Shown here one piece after another: positions 262 to 21,135 of a stretch of DNA of 32,000 bases (positions are counted from its first letter, which is position 1; each line of letters opens with the position of its first letter). The notes beneath the pieces were generated by a model. That model searched no databases. It was given only the letters and a program-made list of their open reading frames with translations, and was not told the DNA's origin. A program made the position numbers and the translations under genes. Source of the stretch: Raphidiopsis brookii D9 (GTDB lineage: Bacteria; Cyanobacteriota; Cyanobacteriia; Cyanobacteriales; Nostocaceae); contig ACYB01000016.1 in NCBI GenBank assembly GCA_000175855.1, positions 51,532-83,531 of the forward strand, in the 5' to 3' direction.

Positions 262-609
262 ATGCCAATGGCAGTTGGCGTTATCGAAACTTTAGGTTTT
301 CCCGCAGTTTTGGCCGCAGCAGATGCTATGGTTAAGTCTGCTGCTGTCACAATCGTATACTATGGCATTGCAGAAAGTGGAAGGTTATTGGTTGCTGTTA
401 GAGGACAGGTAGCAGAGGTGAAAACCGCTGTTGCAGCTGGAATAGCTTCCGAAGAAACTGTTTATGGTGGTCAGGTAATTACTCATTACATAGTTCCCAA
501 TCCACCGGAAAATGTGGAAACAATTCTACCTATCCATTTCACTTCTGAGTCTGAACCTTTTCGCTATTTTTTAACTTGTACCGGTAATTTTATTTATACA
601 GGAGATTAG
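262..609 (+). CDS. ccmK3: Carboxysome shell protein CcmK3 (BMC-H domain)
   Basis: The N-terminus [26 protein letters not shown] and the motif [10 protein letters not shown] match my recollection of CcmK3. An AGGAG ribosome-binding site lies upstream. The gene sits directly upstream of a CcmK4-like gene. Confidence 0.85.
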
Positions 610-611
610 TA

Positions 612-962
612 ATGTCCCTACAGGCCGTTGGATCTTTAGAAACAAAGGGTTTTCCCGCAGTTTTAGCCGCAGCAGATGCTATGGTTAAAGCTGGAAGGGT
701 AACTTTGGTCGGTTATATCCGAGTTGGTAGCGCCCGCTTTACAATCAATATTCGTGGTGATGTTTCTGAGGTGAAAACCGCCATGGCCGCTGGTGTGGAA
801 GCAGCACAAAATGTCTATGGTGGTACTCTAGAATCCTGGGTAATTATCCCCCGTCCCCATGAAAACGTAGAAGCTGTCTTACCTATTGCTTACACGGATC
901 AAGTCCAGCAATATCGAGATTCGGTGGAAAACCCCATCGTCCGCTCCTCCAGTGGTAGATAG
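612..962 (+). CDS. ccmK4: Carboxysome shell protein CcmK4 (BMC-H domain)
   Basis: [55 protein letters not shown] and [11 protein letters not shown] are typical of CcmK4. Its ATG starts 2 nt after the ccmK3 stop. Confidence 0.85.
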
Positions 963-1058
963 TTCTTGTTAACTATCTTAAACCTATCTTTTTGGAATAA
1001 AAATGATTTTTGTTAATGCCGACTTAAATGGTGCAGCAAATATTTTAGGCGATTTACC

Positions 1059-2195
1059 ATGGAACTAAGTGCAGCAAATATAGCAGAATATTGGCAGAAA
1101 CTACTCGCTGCTGAGTCTCCTGAAAACAGTGATGACGCTAGAAATAGTATTATGCTTTGGCTTTTGGGGTCGGACTTAACTAGATTTGCAGGGTTAACAC
1201 CCAAAGAATTGGAGATTGCTCAAAAGGCTATGGAATATCGCTGGCGAGTTCTACGACAGCGATATCTAGGTGTGGGAAGAGAACAGGCCTATCGTAATTT
1301 GATGGTTCGTTTGGCCAGTGTCACAACGATTAGAAATAAAATTCAAACCTGGATTTCTTTGAGTCGCGATCGCCAGCGTGGTGTGATAGATGTACTGCAA
1401 GAGATAATTCAGGAAATGCTGCAAAGTGATTCTTATATGCAGCAGCAAATGAGTCTAATTGCTGATGCAACTAGGGATAGAAGGTTGCGAGACATGTTAC
1501 TATTTGCCAGCTTGGAAGAATACTGTTTGCGACCTGTGCGTAATCAGCCTTTATTGACACATCGGTTTGTCAATTATTTACGCCGAATTCAGCGAGGGGG
1601 GTTGACTCAAATTCCTGGTAAGGACGTAATTAGACTGGTTTCTGACGAAATATTAACAGAAGATACGGAAAGCAGCTTAAATCTTTTAGATGACGAAGCG
1701 ATCGCCCAATATCAGGAAGCGCAAAAGGTAGAAGAGCAACAATTGTTACGTCAGGAAGTGCGAGAGAAATTCGAGGAATACCTATTGGAGAAGCTAGGAC
1801 AAACAGCGGTGGAGTGGTTGAGCTTATATTTAGAGGGTAAGAGTCAAGAGGAAATTGCTAAAAAGCTGAATCAGCCAATTAGGGAGTTATACAGATTAAG
1901 GGAGAAAATTAGTTACCATGCTGTTAAGGTTTTTGCCATCAAGGATAAACCGGAGTTGGTAGAGAATTGGTTATCAACCTCTTTGAAGGAAGATGGGTTA
2001 GGTCTAACGCCAAAACAATGGGAGCAGTTAGGGGAGAAGATAAGTCCCCTAGGTAAGGAGATTCTTGATAGAAGGAAAGCGGGGGATTCTTTAGCAGGAA
2101 TAGGGGAGAAATTACAGTTGAAGACCCATAAGGTGATAGGTGAGTGGACAAAGGTTTATTTAGTCGCTCAGAATTTAAGGGGCCAAAATAATTAA
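1059..2195 (+). CDS. Putative DNA-binding regulator with C-terminal sigma-70 region-4-like HTH segments, possibly HetZ-related
   Basis: This is a 378-aa ORF with good coding character. HTH-like segments are SQEEIAKKLNQPIRELYRLREKISYHAV and SLAGIGEKLQLKTHKVIGEW. The HetZ-related label comes from memory only. The N-terminal boundary is uncertain (see the TnpB-relic finding). Confidence 0.5.
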   Translation: MELSAANIAEYWQKLLAAESPENSDDARNSIMLWLLGSDLTRFAGLTPKELEIAQKAMEYRWRVLRQRYLGVGREQAYRNLMVRLASVTTIRNKIQTWISLSRDRQRGVIDVLQEIIQEMLQSDSYMQQQMSLIADATRDRRLRDMLLFASLEEYCLRPVRNQPLLTHRFVNYLRRIQRGGLTQIPGKDVIRLVSDEILTEDTESSLNLLDDEAIAQYQEAQKVEEQQLLRQEVREKFEEYLLEKLGQTAVEWLSLYLEGKSQEEIAKKLNQPIRELYRLREKISYHAVKVFAIKDKPELVENWLSTSLKEDGLGLTPKQWEQLGEKISPLGKEILDRRKAGDSLAGIGEKLQLKTHKVIGEWTKVYLVAQNLRGQNN

Positions 2196-2413: not shown

Positions 2414-2636
2414 AAGTATAAAACTAATTGAACAGATATGCAAGGGGTTTATAGAAAATAATTAATAAAATTTGTAAATCTTTTCGACTTGTCAAGCATA
2501 AATGAAAATATAGGAATTTCTGACTCACCCTAGCTTTAAAACCCAATCTAGGTTACATTTATATATTTACTGTATTCGTATAGGCGTGTTTTCATACAAC
2601 TCCAGGAATTTTTAGGAAATCCCCCGGTCTAGAAGT

Positions 2637-2775
2637 AGCAATTAAGTTGGCTGAAAAGACTAATGATGTGGTTATTGGTTTATGTATATTGTATGAGTTA
2701 CCAATTAGGGTTCTAGGAACCTAATTGCTTGAATCAGGGTGTGACCGTTCAATTGAGATTAAGGATAGTTGATCT
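2637..2775 (+). promoter_or_regulatory. Conserved upstream leader element, copy 1, the most diverged
   Basis: Shares the box GCAATTAAGTTGG...TAATGATGTGGTTATTGGTTTATGTATATTGTAT with the other four leaders. It then forms its own hairpin, CAATTAGGGTTC-TAG-GAACCTAATTG (2702-2727). Confidence 0.4.
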
Positions 2776-2943
2776 ATGAATTTAATCGACAATAACGTGC
2801 TATTCACCCAGGTTTTTGATAGAGAATCAGTTAGTATTAATGGTGGTAGTCTGTTGGAAATAGTTAATGTGCCTAATGACGTGCTAAATTTCTTTCAGAA
2901 TTTACCATCAGAGTTAGAAAATTGGATTCTCGGATATCTTTAA
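2776..2943 (+). CDS. Double-glycine-leader peptide 1 (55 aa), distinct acidic core
   Basis: Not in the ORF track because it is under 60 aa. My translation is MNLIDNNVLFTQVFDRESVSINGG|SLLEIVNVPNDVLNFFQNLPSELENWILGYL. The 24-aa leader aligns with the four downstream peptides. An AAGGA ribosome-binding site lies upstream. Confidence 0.7.
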   Translation: MNLIDNNVLFTQVFDRESVSINGGSLLEIVNVPNDVLNFFQNLPSELENWILGYL

Positions 2944-3074
2944 GTAAAAGTCATTGAATTTGGGTTTCAGGTATTGGTGTTTGCGAGAACGCCTACCTGA
3001 CACTCAATTTTACTTATAAACCCTTTCCTAAGATAGAAATTAGATTGCCAACCTGAAGTTTTTAAAAATAAGGT

Positions 3075-3106
3075 CCCCAATTTCTTTATGGAAGTTGGGG
3101 ATTTAT
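3075..3106 (+). terminator. Intrinsic-terminator-like hairpin CCCCAATTTC-TTTATG-GAAGTTGGGG with tail ATTTAT
   Basis: The 10-bp stem has one G-U pair and a T-rich tail. The same element recurs after peptides 3 and 4. Confidence 0.55.
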
Positions 3107-3116
3107 TGTGAGCAGA

Positions 3117-3292
3117 GATGTATTTTTGAGAAGTTGTTTTTCCTCAAGGTGGTAATTAGGTTGGTTGGAAATATCAATGATCTGGCTATTGGTTTCTGGA
3201 TATTGTATTAACAAGCAAGCGGTTGAGGAACTTGCAAAGAAGGAATCAACCTCTAGCTGAAAACAAATCTAAAGATTATAACTTATACTATC
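3117..3292 (+). promoter_or_regulatory. Conserved upstream leader element, copy 2
   Basis: Homologous to 4028-4211. Contains ATCAATGATCTGGCTATTGGTTTCTGGATATTGTATTAACAAGCAAGC and the hairpin GGTTGA...TCAACC (3221-3226 and 3246-3251). Confidence 0.4.
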
Positions 3293-3493
3293 ATGCAAGT
3301 AACAGGAAATAATGCTCTATTTACGGAAGTTTATGGTGAAGAGTCTGCTATTGTGAGTGGTGGTCAACGCTCTTATAACTTTATTGGGTTAGCTACGTTT
3401 TTTATGCTGGCTCTGATATTGTGGGGACTTGATGAGGGGTTACTATATCCTAATTTTAATAACTATACCCGGTTTGGAGGTATGTCTACTTAG
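3293..3493 (+). CDS. Double-glycine-leader peptide 2 (66 aa)
   Basis: MQVTGNNALFTEVYGEESAIVSGG|QRSYNFIGLATFFMLALILWGLDEGLLYPNFNNYTRFGGMST. It shares the leader and the SYNFIGL...LW.LDE.LL core module with peptides 3-5. Confidence 0.75.
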   Translation: MQVTGNNALFTEVYGEESAIVSGGQRSYNFIGLATFFMLALILWGLDEGLLYPNFNNYTRFGGMST

Positions 3494-3586
3494 GACTCAG
3501 AGTCTATTTTTTTAAAAAGAATTTGTTTTTTTGTCTAAAAAAGTTCTCAGATTCTCCAAAAAGTCTGGGAATTTTTTATGCTTAAA

Positions 3587-3768
3587 GGTGTGTATTTTTA
3601 AGAAATATTTTCTCATAAATATGGCAATTAAAACTACTAAAAGTATCAATGATCTTATTATTGATTCCATCTATTGTATTAGTAAGCAAGCAGTTGAGGG
3701 ACTTACAAATAGGCAATCAACTTCTAGCTGAAAATAAACCTAATCAAAAGATCAAGGAGTACTGTATC
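3587..3768 (+). promoter_or_regulatory. Conserved upstream leader element, copy 3
   Basis: Homologous to the other leaders (GTATTTTTAAGAAAT...ATCAATGATCTTATTATTGATTCCATCTATTGTATTAGTAAGCAAGC). Hairpin AGTTGA...TCAACT at 3692-3697 and 3717-3722. Confidence 0.4.
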
Positions 3769-3927
3769 ATGCAAGTAATCGAAAACAATGCATTATTCGC
3801 TCAAGTTTCTGTCGAAGATGCCGCTGTTTCTTCAGGAGGCTCTTATAACTTCATTGGACTACTTACCTACACTACATTAGGTACACTAATCTGGGCACTT
3901 GACGAAGCTTTACTTCCTGGTGTGTAA
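3769..3927 (+). CDS. Double-glycine-leader peptide 3 (52 aa)
   Basis: MQVIENNALFAQVSVEDAAVSSGG|SYNFIGLLTYTTLGTLIWALDEALLPGV. AAGGAG lies 9 nt upstream of this ATG. The longer track ORF from 3649 runs through the conserved non-coding leader. Confidence 0.8.
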   Translation: MQVIENNALFAQVSVEDAAVSSGGSYNFIGLLTYTTLGTLIWALDEALLPGV

Positions 3928-3987
3928 AAATTGATTTTACCTTTTGACCCAGAATTTTTCTATCAATAGTTTATGATTCCTATATAT

Positions 3988-4018
3988 CCCCAACTTCTCT
4001 GTGGAGTTGGGGATTTGT
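3988..4018 (+). terminator. Intrinsic-terminator-like hairpin CCCCAACTTC-TCTGT-GGAGTTGGGG with tail ATTTGT
   Basis: A GC-rich 10-bp stem 60 nt after the peptide 3 stop, followed by a T-rich tail. Confidence 0.6.
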
Positions 4019-4027
4019 AGTAGTTAT

Positions 4028-4211
4028 AGATATGTATTTTTGAGAAGTTGTTTTTCCTCAAGGTGGTAATTAAGTTGGTTAAAAATATCAATGATCTGGC
4101 TATTAGTTTGTGGATATCGTATTAACAAGCAAGCAGTTGACGAACTTACAAAGAAGCAATCAACTTCCAGCTTAAAACAAATCTAATCACAAGATCAAGG
4201 AGTACTGTATC
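4028..4211 (+). promoter_or_regulatory. Conserved upstream leader element, copy 4
   Basis: Nearly identical to copy 5. Contains the ATCAATGATCTGGCTATTAGTTTGTGGATATCGTATTAACAAGCAAGC box and the AGTTGA...TCAACT hairpin (4135-4140 and 4160-4165). Confidence 0.4.
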
Positions 4212-4370
4212 ATGCAAGTAATCGAAAACAATGCATTATTCGCTCAAGTTTCTGTCGAAGATGCCGCTGTTTCTTCAGGAGGCTCTTATAACTTCATTGG
4301 ACTACTTACCTACACTACATTAGGTACACTAATCTGGGCACTTGACGAAGCTTTACTTCCCGGTGTGTAA
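4212..4370 (+). CDS. Double-glycine-leader peptide 4 (52 aa), protein identical to peptide 3
   Basis: Not in the ORF track because it is under 60 aa. It differs from 3769-3927 by one synonymous change (CCT to CCC). Confidence 0.8.
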   Translation: MQVIENNALFAQVSVEDAAVSSGGSYNFIGLLTYTTLGTLIWALDEALLPGV

Positions 4371-4430
4371 AAATTGATTTTACCTTTTGACCCAGAATTT
4401 TTCTATCAATAGTTTATGATTCCTATATAT

Positions 4431-4461
4431 CCCCAACTTCTCTGTGGAGTTGGGGATTTGT
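4431..4461 (+). terminator. Intrinsic-terminator-like hairpin, identical copy of 3988-4018
   Basis: Same sequence, displaced by 443 bp. Confidence 0.6.
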
Positions 4462-4470
4462 AGTAGTTAT

Positions 4471-4654
4471 AGATATGTATTTTTGAGAAGTTGTTTTTCC
4501 TCAAGGTGGTAATTAAGTTGGTTAAAAATATCAATGATCTGGCTATTAGTTTGTGGATATCGTATTAACAAGCAAGCAGTTGACGAACTTACAAAGAAGC
4601 AATCAACTTCCAGCTTAAAACAAATTTAATCACAAGATCAAGGAGTATTGTATC
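4471..4654 (+). promoter_or_regulatory. Conserved upstream leader element, copy 5
   Basis: Tandem duplicate of 4028-4211, with two substitutions by eye. Confidence 0.4.
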
Positions 4655-4879
4655 ATGGAAGTAATCGAAAAAAACGTATTGTTCTCCCAAATTTCTGTTG
4701 AAGAGTCTGCCATCTTTAGTGGTGGCTCTAATCCTACTCCTCCTACTCCTCCTACTCCTCCTACTCCTCCTACTCCTTCTGGTAATCCAGGTTCTTATAA
4801 CTTCATTGGACTACTTACCTACATTGGGGTAGGTACGCTAATCTGGGCACTTGACGAAGCTTTACTTCCTGGTGCGTAA
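4655..4879 (+). CDS. Double-glycine-leader peptide 5 (74 aa) with Pro/Thr-rich insert
   Basis: MEVIEKNVLFSQISVEESAIFSGG|SNPTPPTPPTPPTPPTPSGNPG-SYNFIGLLTYIGVGTLIWALDEALLPGA. An AAGGAG ribosome-binding site lies upstream. Confidence 0.8.
   Translation: MEVIEKNVLFSQISVEESAIFSGGSNPTPPTPPTPPTPPTPSGNPGSYNFIGLLTYIGVGTLIWALDEALLPGA
4733..4777 (+). repeat. Perfect 9-nt tandem repeat (CCTACTCCT) x5, encoding (PTP)5
   Basis: Read directly from the sequence. It is in frame within peptide 5. Confidence 0.9.
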
Positions 4880-5184: not shown

Positions 5185-7335
5185 ATGAAATACGCCCATA
5201 TTTCCCAACACAGCATCGAAGACTGTGGCGCTGCTTGCTTGGCTGCGATCGCCAAATATTATGGCAAAAATTTCACCTTGACTCGCACCAGAGAAGCTGT
5301 AGGTACAGGTCAATTCGGTACCACTTTATTAGGTCTACAAAGAGGAGCTAAAACCTTAGGTTTTAAAGCTTCAACAGTTAGAACTTCACCAGAAATTCTC
5401 AAAAGATTAAACGAAGCACCCCTACCGGCAATCATTCACTGGCACGGAAATCATTGGGTGGTTTTTTATGGTAAAAAGGGGGAAAAGTATATAATCTCTG
5501 ACCCAGGAGTAGGGGTACGCTACCTCTGTGAAGAAGACTTTATAGAGGGTTGGAATGATTGGTTAATGCTATTGCTAGAACCTAGTCCAGAAGAGTTTTT
5601 AAAAACAGAAGAAGATAAAATAGGTGGCTTTTGGCGTTTCTTTAAACAGGTGTGGACTTTTCGGGGAATTCTTGCCCAAGCTCTACCTCTCAATTTATTA
5701 TTGGGACTGTTATCTTTGGCTTCTCCCTTTTTATTACAAATTCTGACTGATGATGTGCTAGTACGAGGTGATACCAAATTACTCACCACCATGGTCATTG
5801 CCGTGGTCGTGATGAACCTCATTTCTAGCAGTTTATCTTGGGTCCAATCTAATTTAATCGCCCATTTTGCCCAACGTCTCCAATTGGGACTGGTGATGGA
5901 ATTTGGCAGACAAATTTTGCATCTACCTCTATCCTATTATGAAGCTCGTCGCAGTGGAGAAATTACTAGTCGTCTCCAAGATATTAAGCAAATCAATCAG
6001 TTGGTTACTCAAGTAGTTGTCAGTTTACCTAGCAAATTTTTTATTGCTCTGATTTCTCTTGGTCTGATGGCTTTTTATAGCTGGAAGTTAACTTTGGTGG
6101 CTATGATAATTGCTGGGATTATGACTATTACTCCTTTAGTGTTTCAACCTAAATTACAGCAAAAAACCCGTGAACTACTGGTTAAAGATGCGGAAACCCA
6201 AGGTGTATTGGTAGAAACTTTCAAGGGTGCTCTAACTCTCAAAACTACTACCGCTGGCAATCAATTCCTAGAAGAGTTCCAAGTTCGATTTGGCAAGTTG
6301 GCTAATTTAACTTTGAACAGTATGCAAATTGGTATTATCAATAATACCTTTTCTGGCTTTATCTCTTCCATTGGTAGTATTATCCTCCTTTGGTTTGGTG
6401 GTCATTTAGTTATTAATCCTAGTGAAAATCTCAGTATTGGTCAACTCCTGGCTTTTAATTCAATGAATGCTAATTTCCTGGGTCTCATAACGACCGTTAT
6501 CAGTTTTGTCCAGGAATTTACCCGCGCTAAAACAGCAGTTCAAAGACTCACAGAAGTGATAGATACCACTTCAGAAAATGACTATGATGGCAAAAAGCCT
6601 TTTGCTGAAATTCCCAGTGATGCTACAATCACTTGCACTAATATTAATTTCCATTATGCTGGTAGACTTGACCTATTAGAAGATTTTTCCTTAACTATTC
6701 CCGGTGGTCAAGTTGTGGCTTTGATTGGTAAATCAGGATGTGGTAAAAGTACCCTGGCTAAATTAATTGCTGGGCTATATACCCTCCAATCTGGTAATAT
6801 TCGCATCGGACTCTATAACCAACAAGATTTGTCTTTAGAATCTTTACGTCAACAGGTGATTCTAGTTCCTCAAGAACCCCATTTCTGGAGTCGTTCTATT
6901 GTGGAAAACTTCCGTTTGGGCGCACCTCATGTTAGTTTTGAGCAAATTGTCCGAGCTTGTGAAATTGCTGGTGCTGATGAATTTATCAGTAAATTACCCG
7001 CAAAATATCAAACTATATTGGGTGAATTTGGTGCCAATATTTCCGGTGGTCAAAGACAACGATTAGCTATAGCTAGAGCTATTGTTACAGATCCACCAAT
7101 TCTAATTTTGGATGAGTCTACGGGGGGACTAGACCCGGTTAGTGAAGCACAGGTTTTAGATCAGTTATTTAAACACCGTCAAGGAAAAACTACTATTTTA
7201 ATTACCCATCGTCCCCAGGTAATCAATCGCGCTGATTGGATTATTGTATTGGATGGAGGAAAACTCCAATCTCAAGGATCTTTGGAAGAATTGAAATTCA
7301 GACGGGGGGAACACCAAGAATTCATTATGGTCTAA
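5185..7335 (+). CDS. Peptidase-C39-domain ABC transporter (double-glycine peptide cleavage and export, HetC/SunT/LagD-like)
   Basis: The N-terminal C39 domain has a candidate catalytic Cys (SIEDCGAACLA), His (GNHWVVF) and Asp (ISDP). A six-helix-type membrane domain follows. Walker A is GKSGCGKST, the ABC signature is ISGGQRQRLAIARA and Walker B is ILILDEST. Confidence 0.9.
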   Translation: MKYAHISQHSIEDCGAACLAAIAKYYGKNFTLTRTREAVGTGQFGTTLLGLQRGAKTLGFKASTVRTSPEILKRLNEAPLPAIIHWHGNHWVVFYGKKGEKYIISDPGVGVRYLCEEDFIEGWNDWLMLLLEPSPEEFLKTEEDKIGGFWRFFKQVWTFRGILAQALPLNLLLGLLSLASPFLLQILTDDVLVRGDTKLLTTMVIAVVVMNLISSSLSWVQSNLIAHFAQRLQLGLVMEFGRQILHLPLSYYEARRSGEITSRLQDIKQINQLVTQVVVSLPSKFFIALISLGLMAFYSWKLTLVAMIIAGIMTITPLVFQPKLQQKTRELLVKDAETQGVLVETFKGALTLKTTTAGNQFLEEFQVRFGKLANLTLNSMQIGIINNTFSGFISSIGSIILLWFGGHLVINPSENLSIGQLLAFNSMNANFLGLITTVISFVQEFTRAKTAVQRLTEVIDTTSENDYDGKKPFAEIPSDATITCTNINFHYAGRLDLLEDFSLTIPGGQVVALIGKSGCGKSTLAKLIAGLYTLQSGNIRIGLYNQQDLSLESLRQQVILVPQEPHFWSRSIVENFRLGAPHVSFEQIVRACEIAGADEFISKLPAKYQTILGEFGANISGGQRQRLAIARAIVTDPPILILDESTGGLDPVSEAQVLDQLFKHRQGKTTILITHRPQVINRADWIIVLDGGKLQSQGSLEELKFRRGEHQEFIMV

Positions 7336-7381: not shown

Positions 7382-8780
7382 ATGCTCTATACTCATCGAC
7401 GTAAATTTATATCTTCTGTAGATAATCCCCAGTTCCTCCCTCCTGTTAGTCGTTGGACTTCTTTAGCAGGAATATTCCTAGTTGGTACTGTTGCTACTGC
7501 TATTGCTCTTGCTTCTTGGGTTAAATATAATGTCACAGTGAAAGCGGATGCTGTGGTTCGTCCTATGGGAGAAATTCGTGTAGTTCAACCGGAAATAGAG
7601 GGAACTATTAAAAGTATTTTGGTCAAACCAAATCAAACAGTGAAAATAGGTGATGTAATTGCCTATTTAAATACGGATGATTTGCTCATACAAAAAAAGT
7701 CAGTTACAAGAAAATATCCAACAGGGTAATTTACAAATATTGCAAATTCATGCCCAAGTCCGTATTTTAGATCGGCAAATTTTGGCTGAAACTCAAGTTG
7801 CTCAAAATGCTATTAATTCCGCAAGGGTGGATTTGTTACGTAACCAAAGGGAATATCAACAACAGCAGGTTAGCACCCAAGGTGAATTTCTGTCCGCTCA
7901 AGCTAACTGGCAAAAGGCTAAAGCTTCTTTGGATAAAGCTCGAGCAGATCTGAATTTTGCCAAAATGGATAAGGAACGCTATCAGGAACTATCCCAAATT
8001 GGAGCTGTGGGTAGACGGGAATTGGAACAAAAAGCTTTGACTGTTCAGCAAACACAATCAATCCTGGATACTGAGAGGAAATCTCTGGAAATGGCTAAAA
8101 TTAAGGTTCAATCAGCTCAAGTTGCTATTAATCCAACTCCAGCAGCAGTGATGATAGCACAGGAACGTATCGCTCAAGAAACTGCTAGGGGTGTGTCTAA
8201 TATTGCTAGTCTCAATAAGGAAAAACAAGCTTTAATTGAGCGTCGAGTTCAACTAGAAACCCAAATTAAACAATCTATTAAGGAATTAGAGCAGGTAGAA
8301 AATCAGATGCGTAAAAGTATGATTTTAGCTACGAGTAATGGTATTATTCTCAAACTCAATTTACGCAATCCCGGACAGGTGATCCGTCCCAGCGAATCTG
8401 TAGCAGAAATTGTACCTGATAGTTCGGAACTGTTGATTAGAGCTTTAATTCCCACTGAGGAAATACAAAAGGTCAATATAGGTCAACAAGTTAAATTACG
8501 GGTTGGTGCTTGTCCCTATCCTGATTATGGAACACTCCATGGGGTGGTTCAAACTATTTCTCCTGATGTGATTACCAATCAACCTAATAATCCAGGAACG
8601 ACTACTAATAGGATGGGTTATTTTGAAGCTATGGTTAAACCAGCAAGTTTGCAATTTGGTCAAGGTCGACATCAATGTTATCTCCAATCGGGAATGGAGG
8701 TGAAAGCTGATATTATTTCTAAACAGGAAACAGCTCTAGAATTTATGTTCAGAAAAGCAAGGTTAATTACTGATTTGTAA
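7382..8780 (+). pseudogene. HlyD-family membrane fusion protein, split into two frames at an A7 run (7692-7698)
   Basis: 7382-7729 encodes the TM anchor and lipoyl-like hairpin (VVRPMGEIRVVQPEIEGTIKSILVKPNQTVKIGDVIAYL). 7677-8780 encodes the coiled coil and beta-barrel. Removing one A gives the continuous reading ...DDLLIQKSQLQENIQQ... Confidence 0.75.
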
Positions 8781-8830: not shown

Positions 8831-9583
8831 ATGGGTCTCAAAAAGTTCAAACTAGCATTAAATTGGTTGTTTTATAAACAATCTATAAAGCTATATGGGG
8901 AATCAGAAAAAATTCGAGATGATTTGTTACAGGAGTCTTTTACTATCCGTCGCGGTTTGGAAGCATTGAAAATTCAACACTGTAATTTATTAAATAACCA
9001 AGTAATGGGTTATCCATCGCCAGGTTTTTATCCTGTAAGTTCTCAACTAATCAGTGCTTATTTACCACATAATGAATCACCAAATCAATCATTTAATACT
9101 TCAATTTCTGAACATATTAAAAGGGTGGAAAACTTTCATCACTCCCTAGTTGATTTAAGCGATCGCCTGTTTCCAATTTATATTGAAGAGAGTCTACCTT
9201 TATCCATTCAGTGTTTGCTAGATTCTTGTTTTCTTGCTCATCCTCACATATCAGTTGATTTTGACATGCCCAGTTATTGGAGGAAGGAGTCAGCACAATT
9301 TAGTCTGCTGACTTTAAGAACTCTTCAGGAATTAATGTCTATAACTGTACCAACTTTTTCCGATCCTCTATCAATTTATATAAATTTGAAAGACCGGAAA
9401 AATATTCGGGAACTAACTCTGGAAATTATTTACCCCGATATTTCTACTTTGTTATTTTATTCTGGTTTACCGGAATTAAAATATCTCAGTAGTAGCTGGG
9501 AATTTTTAATTTCTGGTAAATGTTTTTATCATATAGTCAATTACAAAAGTAACTACAAAATAGCCTGGTTTTTTTGCTGGTGA
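8831..9583 (+). CDS. Degenerate histidine-kinase-like protein lacking recognisable H, N and G boxes
   Basis: EKIRDDLLQESFTIRRGLE resembles a HisKA_3 H-box but lacks the His. LVDLSDRLFPIYIEESLPLSIQCLL and LRTLQELMSITV resemble the dimerisation and N-box regions but lack the Asn. No DxGxG motif and no TM segment is present. Confidence 0.4.
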   Translation: MGLKKFKLALNWLFYKQSIKLYGESEKIRDDLLQESFTIRRGLEALKIQHCNLLNNQVMGYPSPGFYPVSSQLISAYLPHNESPNQSFNTSISEHIKRVENFHHSLVDLSDRLFPIYIEESLPLSIQCLLDSCFLAHPHISVDFDMPSYWRKESAQFSLLTLRTLQELMSITVPTFSDPLSIYINLKDRKNIRELTLEIIYPDISTLLFYSGLPELKYLSSSWEFLISGKCFYHIVNYKSNYKIAWFFCW

Positions 9584-9763: not shown

Positions 9764-10492
9764 ATGTTGATAATGCAACATCAAATACAACATTTATTAC
9801 CTGATCAATTAACCGTTCAATCCACTAATCAAACTAATAAACTGCTGAAGATATTAGTCATTGATGACCATGAATCGGTTCTGAACGGGACGATTTACAT
9901 TTTGCGTAAAAACTATCCCAGTGCTGAATTTATAACTGCAACAGATGTGCAAACAACTGTGGACCAGGTAACTAATAGACAACCTGATCTCATAGTTATG
10001 GATCTTTCCATACCTGAAAGACAAGGAATGACTGCTCGCACTGATAATGGTATTCAACTACTAAAGACCTTGATGAAACAACATCCCCATCTGAATATTG
10101 TTGTTCAAAGCGCCCACAGCAAAACCCTAGTGCGAATTCGGTTAAATATTGACAGTCATCAAGGAGGTTTTACCATTGCTAATAAAAGTGTTTCTATTCA
10201 GGAGATGTTAACCAGGGTTGATTGGGCATTACAAGGACTAACTCACACTAAGGATATTAAGGGAATTAACTCGGGAATGGAGGTAAAACCAGAGTGGTTA
10301 AAAGTTTTATATTTGGCCTTTGAGCGGGGATTACAAGATAAAGCTATTGCTCAAGAAATGTGTGTTTCTGAACGAATGGTACGTCATTATTGGAATAAGT
10401 TACAAGATGCTCTCAATATCTATCCAGAGGTCGGTAAAAATATTCGTATTCAAACGGAAAAACAAGCTAGGGAGGAGGGATTGATTGATTAG
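9764..10492 (+). CDS. Response regulator, NarL/FixJ (LuxR-type HTH) family
   Basis: The receiver domain has VIDDHE, DLIVMDLSIPE (phospho-acceptor Asp), SAHS and ANKS. The C-terminal HTH is QDKAIAQEMCVSERMVRHYWNKLQDAL. Confidence 0.85.
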   Translation: MLIMQHQIQHLLPDQLTVQSTNQTNKLLKILVIDDHESVLNGTIYILRKNYPSAEFITATDVQTTVDQVTNRQPDLIVMDLSIPERQGMTARTDNGIQLLKTLMKQHPHLNIVVQSAHSKTLVRIRLNIDSHQGGFTIANKSVSIQEMLTRVDWALQGLTHTKDIKGINSGMEVKPEWLKVLYLAFERGLQDKAIAQEMCVSERMVRHYWNKLQDALNIYPEVGKNIRIQTEKQAREEGLID

Positions 10493-10547: not shown

Positions 10548-11528
10548 ATGCAGTCTAAACCTTGGAAAAAGATTAGGGTGGTTTTACCAATCAACCATTT
10601 ATTAAACCATATATCAATCTGTATATTAAACTATCTATCAAACCATCTATCTAACATTTACCAAAAACGGATTCTTGGTTATTTGGGAATTTTTAATTTA
10701 CTCAGTATTACCTATCTAATAGTAAATTGGGATTATTTAAACTCTCCTATTTTGGCAGTTTATATTATTATTGCTAATCTGTTGGAATTGATAATACTAC
10801 AGCACAAAGGTCAAAACCTAAAATTAGAAGTTAAATCCAGACAAACAATCATTGAAATTATCTTTGAAACCATCCATAATGGTCCCCTACAAACCCTAGA
10901 TAAAATTTTAAGAATAGTCAATCAAGTCAATCAGCAAGAATTCTCTTCAGATACACTAATCAAAACCACAATTCCAGAATTAACCACAGAACTGGAAAAA
11001 TTAAACCAAGAACTCAGAGGAATCTATGAATTTTGGCACCGAGAAACCATCTCTCCACACGCTAACCTCTACCTAGATAAAAATCTAGTCATTAATTTAG
11101 AAGCTCCCCTACCAGAAATCCTCTATCAGGTCTATACCCATACCCTGGAACGAAATTTCTCCTGTTTTCAAACCATTAGATTAAAAGTCCGCAGTTTTGA
11201 CCCACTGGATGAAACTGGGTTAACCCTGGAACATAAACGCGGAATTTGTCGTTTCTTGGAAGAATCACTATGTAATGTGGGTAAATATGCAACAGAAGTA
11301 ACCTGTCTTAAAGTTAGTGGCCTCTCATATATGGGTTGGTACACGCTCAGTATTATCGATAATGGTTTAGGTGTGAACTCATGTAAAGAAGGAGAAGGAA
11401 CAAAGCAGTTCAAATATTTAGCTCAACAAATTCAAGGTAAATTTCAGAGAATTCCTCAACATCCCCAAGGAACTATTTGTGAATTATCTTGGCCTATAAG
11501 TTCTGTGGTCAAGAATCATCAAACTTAG
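10548..11528 (+). CDS. Sensor histidine kinase (HisKA_3 plus HATPase_c) with two TM helices and a minimal external loop
   Basis: TM segments are ILGYLGIFNLLSITYLIV and ILAVYIIIANLLELIIL. The H-box is ETIHNGPLQTL, the N-box-like motif is LEESLCNVGKYA, G1 is IIDNGLGV, and the G2-like motif is GEGTKQFKYLAQQIQG. Confidence 0.75.
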   Translation: MQSKPWKKIRVVLPINHLLNHISICILNYLSNHLSNIYQKRILGYLGIFNLLSITYLIVNWDYLNSPILAVYIIIANLLELIILQHKGQNLKLEVKSRQTIIEIIFETIHNGPLQTLDKILRIVNQVNQQEFSSDTLIKTTIPELTTELEKLNQELRGIYEFWHRETISPHANLYLDKNLVINLEAPLPEILYQVYTHTLERNFSCFQTIRLKVRSFDPLDETGLTLEHKRGICRFLEESLCNVGKYATEVTCLKVSGLSYMGWYTLSIIDNGLGVNSCKEGEGTKQFKYLAQQIQGKFQRIPQHPQGTICELSWPISSVVKNHQT

Positions 11529-18497: not shown

Positions 18498-18733
18498 ACT
18501 TGTGTCACCTCCTAGGGTAAATGCTCAGTCGTGAGTAATTTAGTTATGGCCATGTTGACTTACCGAAAACAACAAACCCCAGCGATCTTGGCCGGGGTTT
18601 CATAGTAGTATTTTTAATGCTGTAGTTCCCACGTCTGGTTAACGGATGTGGAATTACTTCAGTCAGTTAAAATTACAACCTCGGCAGGATATTAAGCTAT
18701 ACGCACCTGCTATCTCCGGCTTAATTATGCAAA
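18498..18733 (-). promoter_or_regulatory. rplJ leader region with attenuator-like hairpin
   Basis: The rplA-rplJ spacer is 236 nt. On the minus strand, AAACCCC-N13-GGGGTTT (18600-18574) is followed by GTTGTTTTCGG. Confidence 0.35.
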
Positions 18734-19450
18734 TTATGCAGCGTCAGTTGTTTTTAAATCTCTCAGGGCGTTAATATCAACTTTAATTGATGGACCCATG
18801 GTAGAAGAGATGTAGAATGTTCGCCAATACCGACCTTTGGCTCCTGAAGGACGATTACGGTCAATCGTCTCTTGCAATGCTTTGAGGTTGACCAGCAGAT
18901 CTTCCGAAGAAAAGGAAGCCTTACCAAACATAACATGAACAATGCCAGTTCGGTCAGCACGAAATTCTAGTTTACCAGCTTTAAATTCACTAATCGCACT
19001 CGCTATGTCAAATGTTACTGTACCACCTTTAGGAGATGGCATCAATCCACGAGGACCTAATAATTTCCCTAGCTTTGCTACCTGTGGCATCACATCAGGA
19101 GTAGCAATTAGCTTGTCAAAGTCCATCATGCCCCTCTGAATTTCATCAATTAGCTCTTCAGAACCAGCTATGTCCGCACCTGCATTGGTGGCTTCTGTGA
19201 CTTTCTCCCCTCTAGCAATAACTGCTACTCGCACTATCTGACCCGTACCCTTGGGTAACACCACAGTGGTTCGCAGTTGTTGATCCGTGTACTTAGGGTC
19301 AATTCCCAGGCGAATATGTGCTTCAGCAGCTTCGGGAAATTTTGCTGTAGCGGTCTCTTTCAATAGGGATAACGCTTCTAAGGGAGCGTAATCCCGTTCT
19401 TCTACTTTTGCTTGCAACGCCTGTAATCGGCGTGATACTTTCTTTACCAT
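18734..19450 (-). CDS. rplA: 50S ribosomal protein L1
   Basis: [34 protein letters not shown] and [20 protein letters not shown]. Confidence 0.95.
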
Positions 19451-21062: not shown

Positions 21063-21135
21063 CGCGCCCTGGAGGACTTGAACCCCCGACATTAGGTTTT
21101 GGAGACCTACGTTCTACCAACTGAACTAAGAGCGC
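21063..21135 (-). tRNA. trnW: tRNA-Trp (anticodon CCA)
   Basis: The reverse complement is GCGCTCTTAGTTCAGTTGGTAGAACGTAGGTCTCCAAAACCTAATGTCGGGGGTTCAAGTCCTCCAGGGCGCG. It folds as a cloverleaf with anticodon loop CTCCAAA and a GTTCAAGTC T-loop. The 3' CCA is not encoded. Confidence 0.9.

Follow-up and report, generated by a model that had tools for sequence, protein, structure and literature searches.

Five short open reading frames (ORFs) in a 32,000-nucleotide window of the Raphidiopsis brookii D9 genome (contig ACYB01000016.1; the window is the whole stretch analysed, and all unqualified positions are counted from its first nucleotide) encode peptide precursors, here called pep1 to pep5, that carry a double-glycine (GG) leader and stand ahead of a peptidase-containing ATP-binding cassette (ABC) transporter (PCAT). 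From sequence comparison, we identify these peptides with high confidence as genuine, ribosomally made, and apparently unmodified cargo of a secretion module conserved in the Nostocales, namely group III of Wang et al. 2011. The module is an order-wide core feature in which exporter, adaptor, regulator, sensor, and cis-element are conserved, and the cargo is swapped between strains. The analysis is valuable mainly because the order-wide module and its cis-element open a way to test function, and the system lends itself well to finding out whether the double-glycine peptides of bloom-forming cyanobacteria serve in competition, aggregation, or signalling.

Both the ORFs and their acidic nature had already been published: in Wang, Fewer and Sivonen (2011; PMC3140520), Table S3 names CRD_00994, CRD_00995, CDS22, CDS23, and CRD_00996 on ACYB01000016 as 'group III' bacteriocin precursors, at coordinates equal to those of the window plus 51,531. 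The isoelectric points given there are 3.2-4.0, and the whole-precursor charges are -6, -3, -5, -5, and -5. Not described before are the core family itself and its function. An earlier sequence-only reading of the locus had drawn attention to the cores; its observation was confirmed, and its interpretation was supported in part.

Leaders and predicted cores

The five leaders are all 24 residues long and share G-1, G-2, E/D-8, V/I-12, F-15, and L-16. The consensus for PCAT leaders ends in GG, GA, or GS, with hydrophobic residues at -4, -7, and -12 and Glu at -8 (PMC6363468). Position -4 is I, V, or F in three of the four distinct leaders (pep1, pep2, and pep5) and Ser in that of pep3/4; position -7, canonically Leu, is S or A. 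The adjacent exporter has a C39 domain (Peptidase_C39, E=4e-32) in which the catalytic residues Q8, C14, H90, and D106 are all present, so that both the GG leader pattern and the catalytically complete peptidase expected for PCAT substrates were found together. This leader pattern, the possession of an upstream element by each gene, and recurrence in Cylindrospermopsis genomes and metagenomes indicate that the five ORFs are genuine and not chance.

Cleavage is predicted after G24, and core composition was computed on that basis, at the first GG (G23-G24). The pep1 core (31 residues) has no K or R and four D/E; that of pep2 (42 residues) has two R and two D/E, for a net charge of 0; the core common to pep3 and pep4 (28 residues) has no K or R, one D, and one E; and the pep5 core (50 residues) has no K or R and two D/E. 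The monoisotopic masses predicted for the cores are 3601.87 Da (pep1), 4850.40 Da (pep2), 3053.64 Da (pep3/4), and 5068.61 Da (pep5). Cys and His are absent from all five, and net charge ranges from 0 to -4, exactly the Cys-free, neutral-to-acidic character that the sequence-only reading had reported. Its view that the peptides look unmodified also held, as the cores contain no Cys and neither LanM, nor a cyclodehydratase, nor a similar modification enzyme is found among the cluster neighbours; a lanthipeptide or another Cys-dependent, post-translationally modified peptide was rejected on the same grounds.

An alignment of pep2 to pep5 confirmed the proposed common module, which reads S-Y-N-F-I-G-L...W-(A/G)-L-D-E-x-L-L-(P/Y); S-Y-N-F-I-G-L, the W, L-D-E, and L-L-P/Y are invariant. 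The pep2 core contains this module (SYNFIGL...WGLDEGLLYP) and a C-terminal tail, and the pep1 core is unrelated to it. The pep3/pep4 pair derives from a 443-bp tandem duplication (3672-3971 versus 4115-4414, 96% DNA identity), and the duplicated unit, within 3672-4414, also took along the upstream elements and the terminator-like hairpins of the two genes. In pep5, a Pro/Thr linker separates the GG site from the module; a 9-nt tandem repeat (4723-4789; TPP units) encodes it. Among strains, this linker varies in length and sequence, reading as three to four PTPP units or, in metagenomes and C. raciborskii CENA303, as NKKDD(TD)n, which suggests slipped-strand variation of a tolerated spacer. The claim that peptide 5 has no basic residue is thus correct for the D9 core, but strain variants carry Lys in the linker (NKKDDTD...), and the absence of basic residues is therefore not a conserved trait of this peptide type.

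The sequence-only reading also described a hydrophobic stretch of transmembrane (TM) length, about 20 residues. An uncharged run of exactly 20 residues is indeed present in pep2 to pep4, but by the classical Kyte-Doolittle criterion for a TM segment only pep2 qualifies, with a 19-residue mean of 1.83 (pep5, 1.48; pep3/4, 1.17; pep1, 0.58). The octanol sums of pep2 to pep5 on the Wimley-White scale are favourable (-9 to -13 kcal/mol), and their helical hydrophobic moments are low (0.22-0.26), so that these cores are uniformly hydrophobic and not amphipathic, whereas pep1, with a moment of 0.55, is amphipathic and acidic. AlphaFold2, run on a seven-sequence alignment, returned a single continuous helix over core residues 25-48 with a predicted local distance difference test score (pLDDT) of 81-89; the mean over the whole precursor was 66. 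The predicted products are Cys-free peptides of 28-50 amino acids (aa) that would be helical, uniformly hydrophobic, and acidic toward the C-terminal end.

Conservation of the module and exchange of its cargo

Orthologues of the exporter, 715-719 aa long and 77-85% identical, occur throughout the Nostocales. Eleven loci from eight or more genera share one gene order: tandem GG-peptide genes, then the exporter, HlyD, a protein without family assignment (not called in the Cylindrospermum locus L089), the response regulator, the sensor, and in most cases an RNase Z-like gene. The response regulator and the kinase-like sensor sit with the exporter and HlyD in every locus examined. The D9 exporter lacks an N-terminal CAP_ED extension, is accompanied by HlyD and nearby GG precursors, and has no LanM, SurA, or S8 peptidase with it, which is the combination that defines group III. 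The module belongs to the core genome and is conserved vertically.

The orthologous cluster of Anabaena PCC 7120 is asr5139-alr5148. It has the same gene order, including the RNase Z-like gene, an exporter also of 716 aa and 77% identical, and the same upstream element. Its cargo differs: five CTB-family and three other peptides, 78-91 aa long, none of which has the SYNFIGL module, although Alr5145 shares just the fragment YNFI.G with it. Its sensor has a CHASE2 domain, its HlyD is intact, and it does not lie beside a HetZ-related gene; D9 differs on all three counts.

Cargo differs everywhere among the orthologous loci, and many genera carry CTB-family peptides (NF038167). Across 21 peptides with an MQVIE-type leader, the leaders are 70% identical and the cores only 25%, roughly the baseline for unrelated sequences. 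Strains of C. raciborskii likewise carry differing cores behind a near-identical leader, and pep1 is common to all Cylindrospermopsis/Raphidiopsis strains seen. A profile search, run exhaustively over 1.84 billion representative proteins, recovered the SYNFIGL module full-length in only four clusters, three from Cylindrospermopsis/Raphidiopsis and one from a metagenomic relative; 18 further matches shared the leader only, 16 of them short peptides of 57-94 aa. A word-based search for homologues of the module found five clusters. Many cargo types are exchanged behind the conserved leader, and the SYNFIGL module is one of them, specific to this lineage.

The character of the D9 cores had been presented as unusual, which the comparison did not bear out. 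Among 49 predicted cores that come from orthologous clusters or share the leader, 36 are negatively charged, 7 neutral, and 6 positive, and Cys occurs in a single one; with 43 of 49 neutral or acidic and 48 of 49 without Cys, an acidic, Cys-free core is normal for this module. Acidic, Cys-free, and hydrophobic is its rule and not an oddity. Negative charge also prevails in the NHLP and N11P families of double-glycine precursors from cyanobacteria (Wang 2011, PMC3140520).

No characterised family accommodated the five peptides, none of which matched Pfam or NCBIfam at E up to 10. The CTB family bacteriocin model (NF038167 / PF28158; cut-off 32 bits) was rejected at the same limit, control CTB peptides scoring 39 and 89 bits. 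In orthologous clusters, CTB peptides stand where the D9 cargo stands; they too lack Cys, follow the same upstream element, and begin with a short GG leader of a related kind. Their leader type is MS.ELF.E.S.EQQ.IVAGG versus MQVIE.N.LF.QV..EES..SGG in the window, and the cores are unrelated. The NHLP and Nif11 leader families were likewise discarded, with no match in Pfam or NCBIfam and a leader of only 24 aa versus ~60-80 aa. A Gram-positive unmodified class II bacteriocin was rejected because the cores carry a net charge of 0 to -4 and lack a YGNGV box, in agreement with the statement of the sequence-only reading that these peptides are unlike the cationic class II type.

Upstream element and transcription units

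Each of the five genes is preceded by a conserved element of ~180 nt in which the blocks follow the order TGGTAATTAAGTTTGCA ... AATGA ... TATTGTATTAA-CAAGC ... GAGTTGA-loop-TCAACTC ... AAGGAG-ATG; they include a Shine-Dalgarno sequence. In other Nostocales genera, it precedes MQVIE-type and CTB-type peptide genes alike. Metagenomes scanned by 17-mer gave 120 matches, 107 of which were chance occurrences without the rest of the element; a GG-peptide ORF lay directly downstream in 13 of the 13 loci with the full element. The arrangement looks like an activator-dependent promoter followed by a structured 5' untranslated region (UTR).

Rfam had no match in the element, and RNAalifold predicted no consensus structure for it. 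An 8-bp hairpin proposed by hand was 79% paired, compared with 22-48% in slid controls, but a single divergent copy supplies most of the changes that affect both sides, and in CTB-type copies the register is displaced; covariation support for the 5' UTR hairpin is moderate and suggestive only. A scan for consensus sigma-70 promoters and terminators returned fewer matches than shuffled sequence and missed the conserved element. Terminator-like hairpins after pep1, pep3, and pep4 suggest separate transcription units.

Adaptor, regulator and sensor

In D9, a 1-nt insertion near 7690, beside an A7 homopolymer, breaks the HlyD gene in two, whereas the C. raciborskii orthologue is intact (465 aa; locus L086, 3064-4461, 98% DNA identity). 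D9 was sequenced by 454/GS20, which is prone to homopolymer errors (PMC2821919), and the split means either that the gene is a true pseudogene or that the draft has a 454 error at the homopolymer.

Among the 11 orthologous loci of sufficient length, 10 have the protein without family assignment (8831-9583) after HlyD; the exception, in which none was called, is the Cylindrospermum locus L089. This protein had no match in PDB, Pfam, or NCBIfam and no profile similarity to the sensor. Its N-terminal segment EAEKIRD.LLQESF.IRR is similar to a HisKA_3 H-box in which another residue takes the place of the His, and the D9 copy has a 34-residue insertion missing from all orthologues.

GerE matches in orthologues of the response regulator had E=0.002-0.005, under the Pfam cut-off. 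The sensor is kinase-like by its H-box motif and by sub-threshold HATPase_c matches in three orthologues (E = 0.004-0.02). It occurs in two forms whose common C-terminal 300 residues are 52% identical: a long form of ~620 aa with an N-terminal CHASE2 domain in Anabaena PCC 7120, Cylindrospermum, and Tolypothrix (L082 13598-15457, L089 13044-14930, and L090 14180-16063), and a short form of ~300-326 aa without CHASE2 in D9, Okeanomitos, Anabaena WFMT, PCC 7108, and A. aphanizomenioides. Against PDB sequences, the sensor profile gave just a weak match to the DosT ATP-binding domain (E=0.55) and a chance pediocin match, and a single-sequence structure model was unusable (pLDDT 39).

Proposed mechanism and role

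Each peptide gene would form its own small transcription unit behind the common upstream element, which the adjacent LuxR-type regulator and CHASE2/2-TM kinase-like sensor would probably drive. The C39 domain of the 716-aa exporter would recognise the 24-residue leader and cut after G24, and the exporter, the HlyD adaptor, and an outer-membrane factor encoded elsewhere would then move the core out, as is known for the family.

For the exported products, we favour, at a probability of about 0.4 and by analogy, a role like that of the EbfG proteins, in which the peptides would self-associate, or would insert at the surface or in the envelope of producing cells and their kin, and so affect aggregation, matrix, or surface properties. 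EbfG1-4 of Synechococcus elongatus PCC 7942 are GG proteins whose tandem genes lie upstream of those for a PCAT and HlyD; the proteins are secreted, biofilm formation requires them, and their cores have no homologues elsewhere (PMC4997328). EbfG1-3 form amyloid, with the hotspot motif A-Phi-N-I-(G/S) (PMC9981879). The products are cut at GG/GA, and their function is non-antibiotic (PMC4997328, PMC9981879). The D9 locus resembles this system in having small, tandem GG-motif proteins before a short-type, PteB-type C39-ABC exporter and HlyD in a group III cluster, with no immunity gene seen on inspection. Alr5147 is 54% identical to PteB, and asr5139-alr5148 has been named the best ebfG-like candidate in Anabaena (Olivan-Muro et al. 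2025, PMC12267927). These two facts, the same tandem GG/PCAT/HlyD layout for EbfG1-4, the absence of an immunity candidate beside the variable cargos, and the vertical conservation of the cluster in the core genome are why an EbfG-like role is preferred, with low-to-moderate confidence, over killing in the style of cationic antimicrobials. The identical tandem copies pep3 and pep4 suggest selection for dosage, and SYNFIG, the sole invariant polar-aromatic block of the cores, counts on the same side for its likeness to the amyloid hotspot. A non-killing role, which the sequence-only reading had thought the better fit, is accordingly plausible, given the proposal for the orthologous Anabaena cluster and the constant presence of regulator and sensor next to the exporter.

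Several points weigh against an EbfG-like role. EbfG proteins, at 6-7 kDa when mature, are not TM-like; the D9 peptides are far shorter and more hydrophobic, and they are predicted to be helical, not beta. Amyloid and adhesin roles have been shown only for EbfG, and no adjacent regulator or sensor has been described there; control of the upstream element by the two-component pair in D9 is probable from co-location only. Compared with the published motif only, SYNFIG resembles LAFNIG without fitting A-Phi-N-I-(G/S). Raphidiopsis and Cylindrospermopsis are planktonic. The D9 HlyD is frameshifted, so that export may have been lost in this strain unless the insertion is a 454 error. Finally, strain-level replacement of cargo behind a conserved leader is also a hallmark of bacteriocin loci.

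That last point leads to the possible, although doubtful, alternative that the peptides are narrow-spectrum, microcin-like bacteriocins: exported hydrophobic, anionic helices that would kill related strains, by inserting into the inner membrane or binding a membrane protein after receptor-mediated uptake, the variable cargo then reflecting an arms race. The sequence-only reading had used charge as an argument against a bacteriocin role, and on charge alone this argument is weak, because cyanobacteria are diderm and the proper comparison is with class II microcins, which are mostly neutral or anionic and ~61% hydrophobic and use receptors rather than electrostatics (PMC10233263). The D9 locus shares with these (MccV with CvaA/CvaB/TolC) a Gram-negative host, the GG leader, a C39-ABC exporter with HlyD-type adaptor, and a hydrophobic, Gly-rich product of <10 kDa that is little or not modified (PMC10233263). 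The variation of cargo among C. raciborskii strains behind a near-identical leader fits, as do the 'CTB family bacteriocin' annotation of sister peptides, which in Nodularia are induced by phosphate starvation (PMC9846622), and bacteriocins against related strains reported from filamentous cyanobacteria (Flores and Wolk 1986, as relayed by a citing paper). However, such names are annotation by analogy, and class II microcins differ in having a dedicated immunity gene, a frequent plasmid or island location, proven antibacterial activity, and an enterobacterial host, with no sequence similarity to the D9 peptides. Microcin and class II loci normally have one immunity gene per toxin; inspection of D9 and of 11 related loci, though not an exhaustive search, showed no conserved small membrane-protein ORF beside or between the cargo genes. 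The export and regulatory genes are also core, syntenic, and 77-85% conserved across the order, unlike accessory bacteriocin islands. Killing and self-association need not be opposed, since the functional readings (EbfG-like, microcin, signalling, and decay) are not mutually exclusive, and Acinetobacter microcins that self-assemble and promote biofilm have recently been reported (PMC13188072).

The contiguity of peptide genes, exporter, regulator, and sensor in every locus also allows one or more of the exported peptides to be an autoinducer that acts through the adjacent sensor and regulator to activate the common upstream element; we regard this as unlikely. Gram-positive three-component loci (comCDE/comAB, blp, and pln) combine GG-leader peptides, a PCAT, a histidine kinase, and a response regulator in one locus, and their cargo is strain-polymorphic; their kinase is of the HPK10 type and their regulator of the LytTR type, their peptides are cationic, and immunity genes are included. 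The D9 locus has the same co-location, of a kinase-like sensor and response regulator with GG peptides and a PCAT, but with a HisKA_3-like H-box and a LuxR-type helix-turn-helix (HTH), not the peptide-sensing HPK10 kinase with LytTR. The best candidate signal would be pep1, which is amphipathic, acidic, and kept in all strains while the others vary, the SYNFIGL peptides being co-regulated effectors or strain-specific signals. One element is common to all of the peptide transcription units, and the sensor of several genera has an extracytoplasmic CHASE2 domain, but D9 lacks CHASE2, peptides hydrophobic over a TM-length stretch would be poor diffusible signals, and multiple redundant paralogues are atypical for pheromones. 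We know of no peptide quorum sensing in cyanobacteria. A related and distinctly unlikely idea is that the module is a peptide-based self- or kin-recognition circuit of multicellular cyanobacteria. Strain-specific hydrophobic peptides would partition into the envelope of neighbouring filaments and be detected there by the CHASE2/2-TM kinase-like sensor, and the LuxR-type regulator would feed back on the common promoter/5' UTR element, with pep1 as the species-wide signal and the SYNFIGL peptides as strain-specific cargo; if true, this would make it the first quorum- or kin-sensing system based on ribosomal peptides among cyanobacteria. It is very improbable, lastly, that the system is simply decaying in D9, the peptides being degraded or left in the producer membrane for want of an adaptor. 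The HlyD insertion, a gene intact in C. raciborskii, the reduced D9 genome (PMC2821919), and the sensor without CHASE2 speak for decay; the homopolymer beside the indel, where 454/GS20 is error-prone, and the intact peptide ORFs, exporter, regulator, and sensor speak against it, and the recent pep3/pep4 duplication argues for ongoing selection.

Neighbouring genes and other features

Two misleading leads, HetC and the HetZ-related neighbour, were removed. The sequence-only reading had brought in HetC-type exporters and heterocyst development, but the D9 exporter is a short-type protein of 716 aa with HlyD and five cargo genes adjacent. HetC-type exporters are long and have an N-terminal extension, no gene for an adaptor or a GG cargo lies close to hetC (PMC10986499), and the genus of D9 makes no heterocysts (PMC2821919). 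Upstream of the peptide genes lie a ccmK-like pair and HetZ-related protein 2 (1059-2195; 587 bits). This block (window 262-2195) is syntenic in 80 Nostocales loci (L001-L080), where the HetZ-related gene stays with the ccmK-like pair and never has the peptide/exporter cluster downstream, and it was therefore rejected as a dedicated regulator. The module lies directly downstream of the block only in Raphidiopsis/Cylindrospermopsis, and the adjacency is thus a lineage-specific accident without a functional link. Coordinates of all features are given in Table 1.

Table 1. Features of the peptide locus, with copies of the upstream element in other loci (L numbers are our labels for the loci compared).
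Feature	Coordinates	Strand	Description
Upstream element of pep1	2600-2775	+	Conserved; putative activator site, -10 box, 5' UTR
pep1 precursor	2776-2943	+	55 aa: 24-aa GG leader + 31-aa acidic amphipathic core; CRD_00994
Hairpin after pep1	3074-3101		Weaker copy of the hairpin after pep3
Upstream element of pep2	3114-3292	+	Conserved
pep2 precursor	3293-3493	+	66 aa: GG leader + 42-aa core; EFA73902.1 = CRD_00995
Upstream element of pep3	3590-3768	+	Conserved
pep3 precursor	3769-3927	+	52 aa: GG leader + 28-aa SYNFIGL module core; CDS22
Terminator-like hairpin after pep3	3987-4013	+	TCCCCAACT, 9-nt loop, AGTTGGGGA, then TTT
Upstream element of pep4	4033-4211	+	Conserved
pep4 precursor	4212-4370	+	52 aa; protein identical to pep3; CDS23
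Hairpin after pep4	4430-4456		Copy of the hairpin after pep3
Upstream element of pep5	4476-4654	+	Conserved
pep5 precursor	4655-4879	+	74 aa: GG leader, Pro/Thr linker, SYNFIGL module; CRD_00996
ABC exporter, short-type, peptidase-containing	5185-7335	+	716 aa; C39, transmembrane, and nucleotide-binding domains; Alr5147 orthologue, 77% identity
HlyD-family membrane fusion protein	7382-8780	+	Split into 115-aa and 367-aa ORFs
Conserved protein without family match	8831-9583	+	Orthologues 213-272 aa
Response regulator	9764-10492	+	Receiver domain + probable LuxR/GerE-type HTH
Membrane sensor, histidine-kinase-like output	10548-11528	+	H-box FETIHNGPLQ; divergent HATPase_c
Upstream element copies, L082	3647-3759, 6127-6226, 6827-6953
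Upstream element copy, L083	6743-6931
Upstream element copy, L084	5182-5395
Upstream element copy, L089	6748-6940
Upstream element copy, L090	6611-6778
Upstream element copies, L091			Three copies

Rfam matches elsewhere in the window, to a ribosomal protein L10 leader (18562-18737, minus strand) and a tRNA (21063-21135, minus strand), are housekeeping features unrelated to the module.

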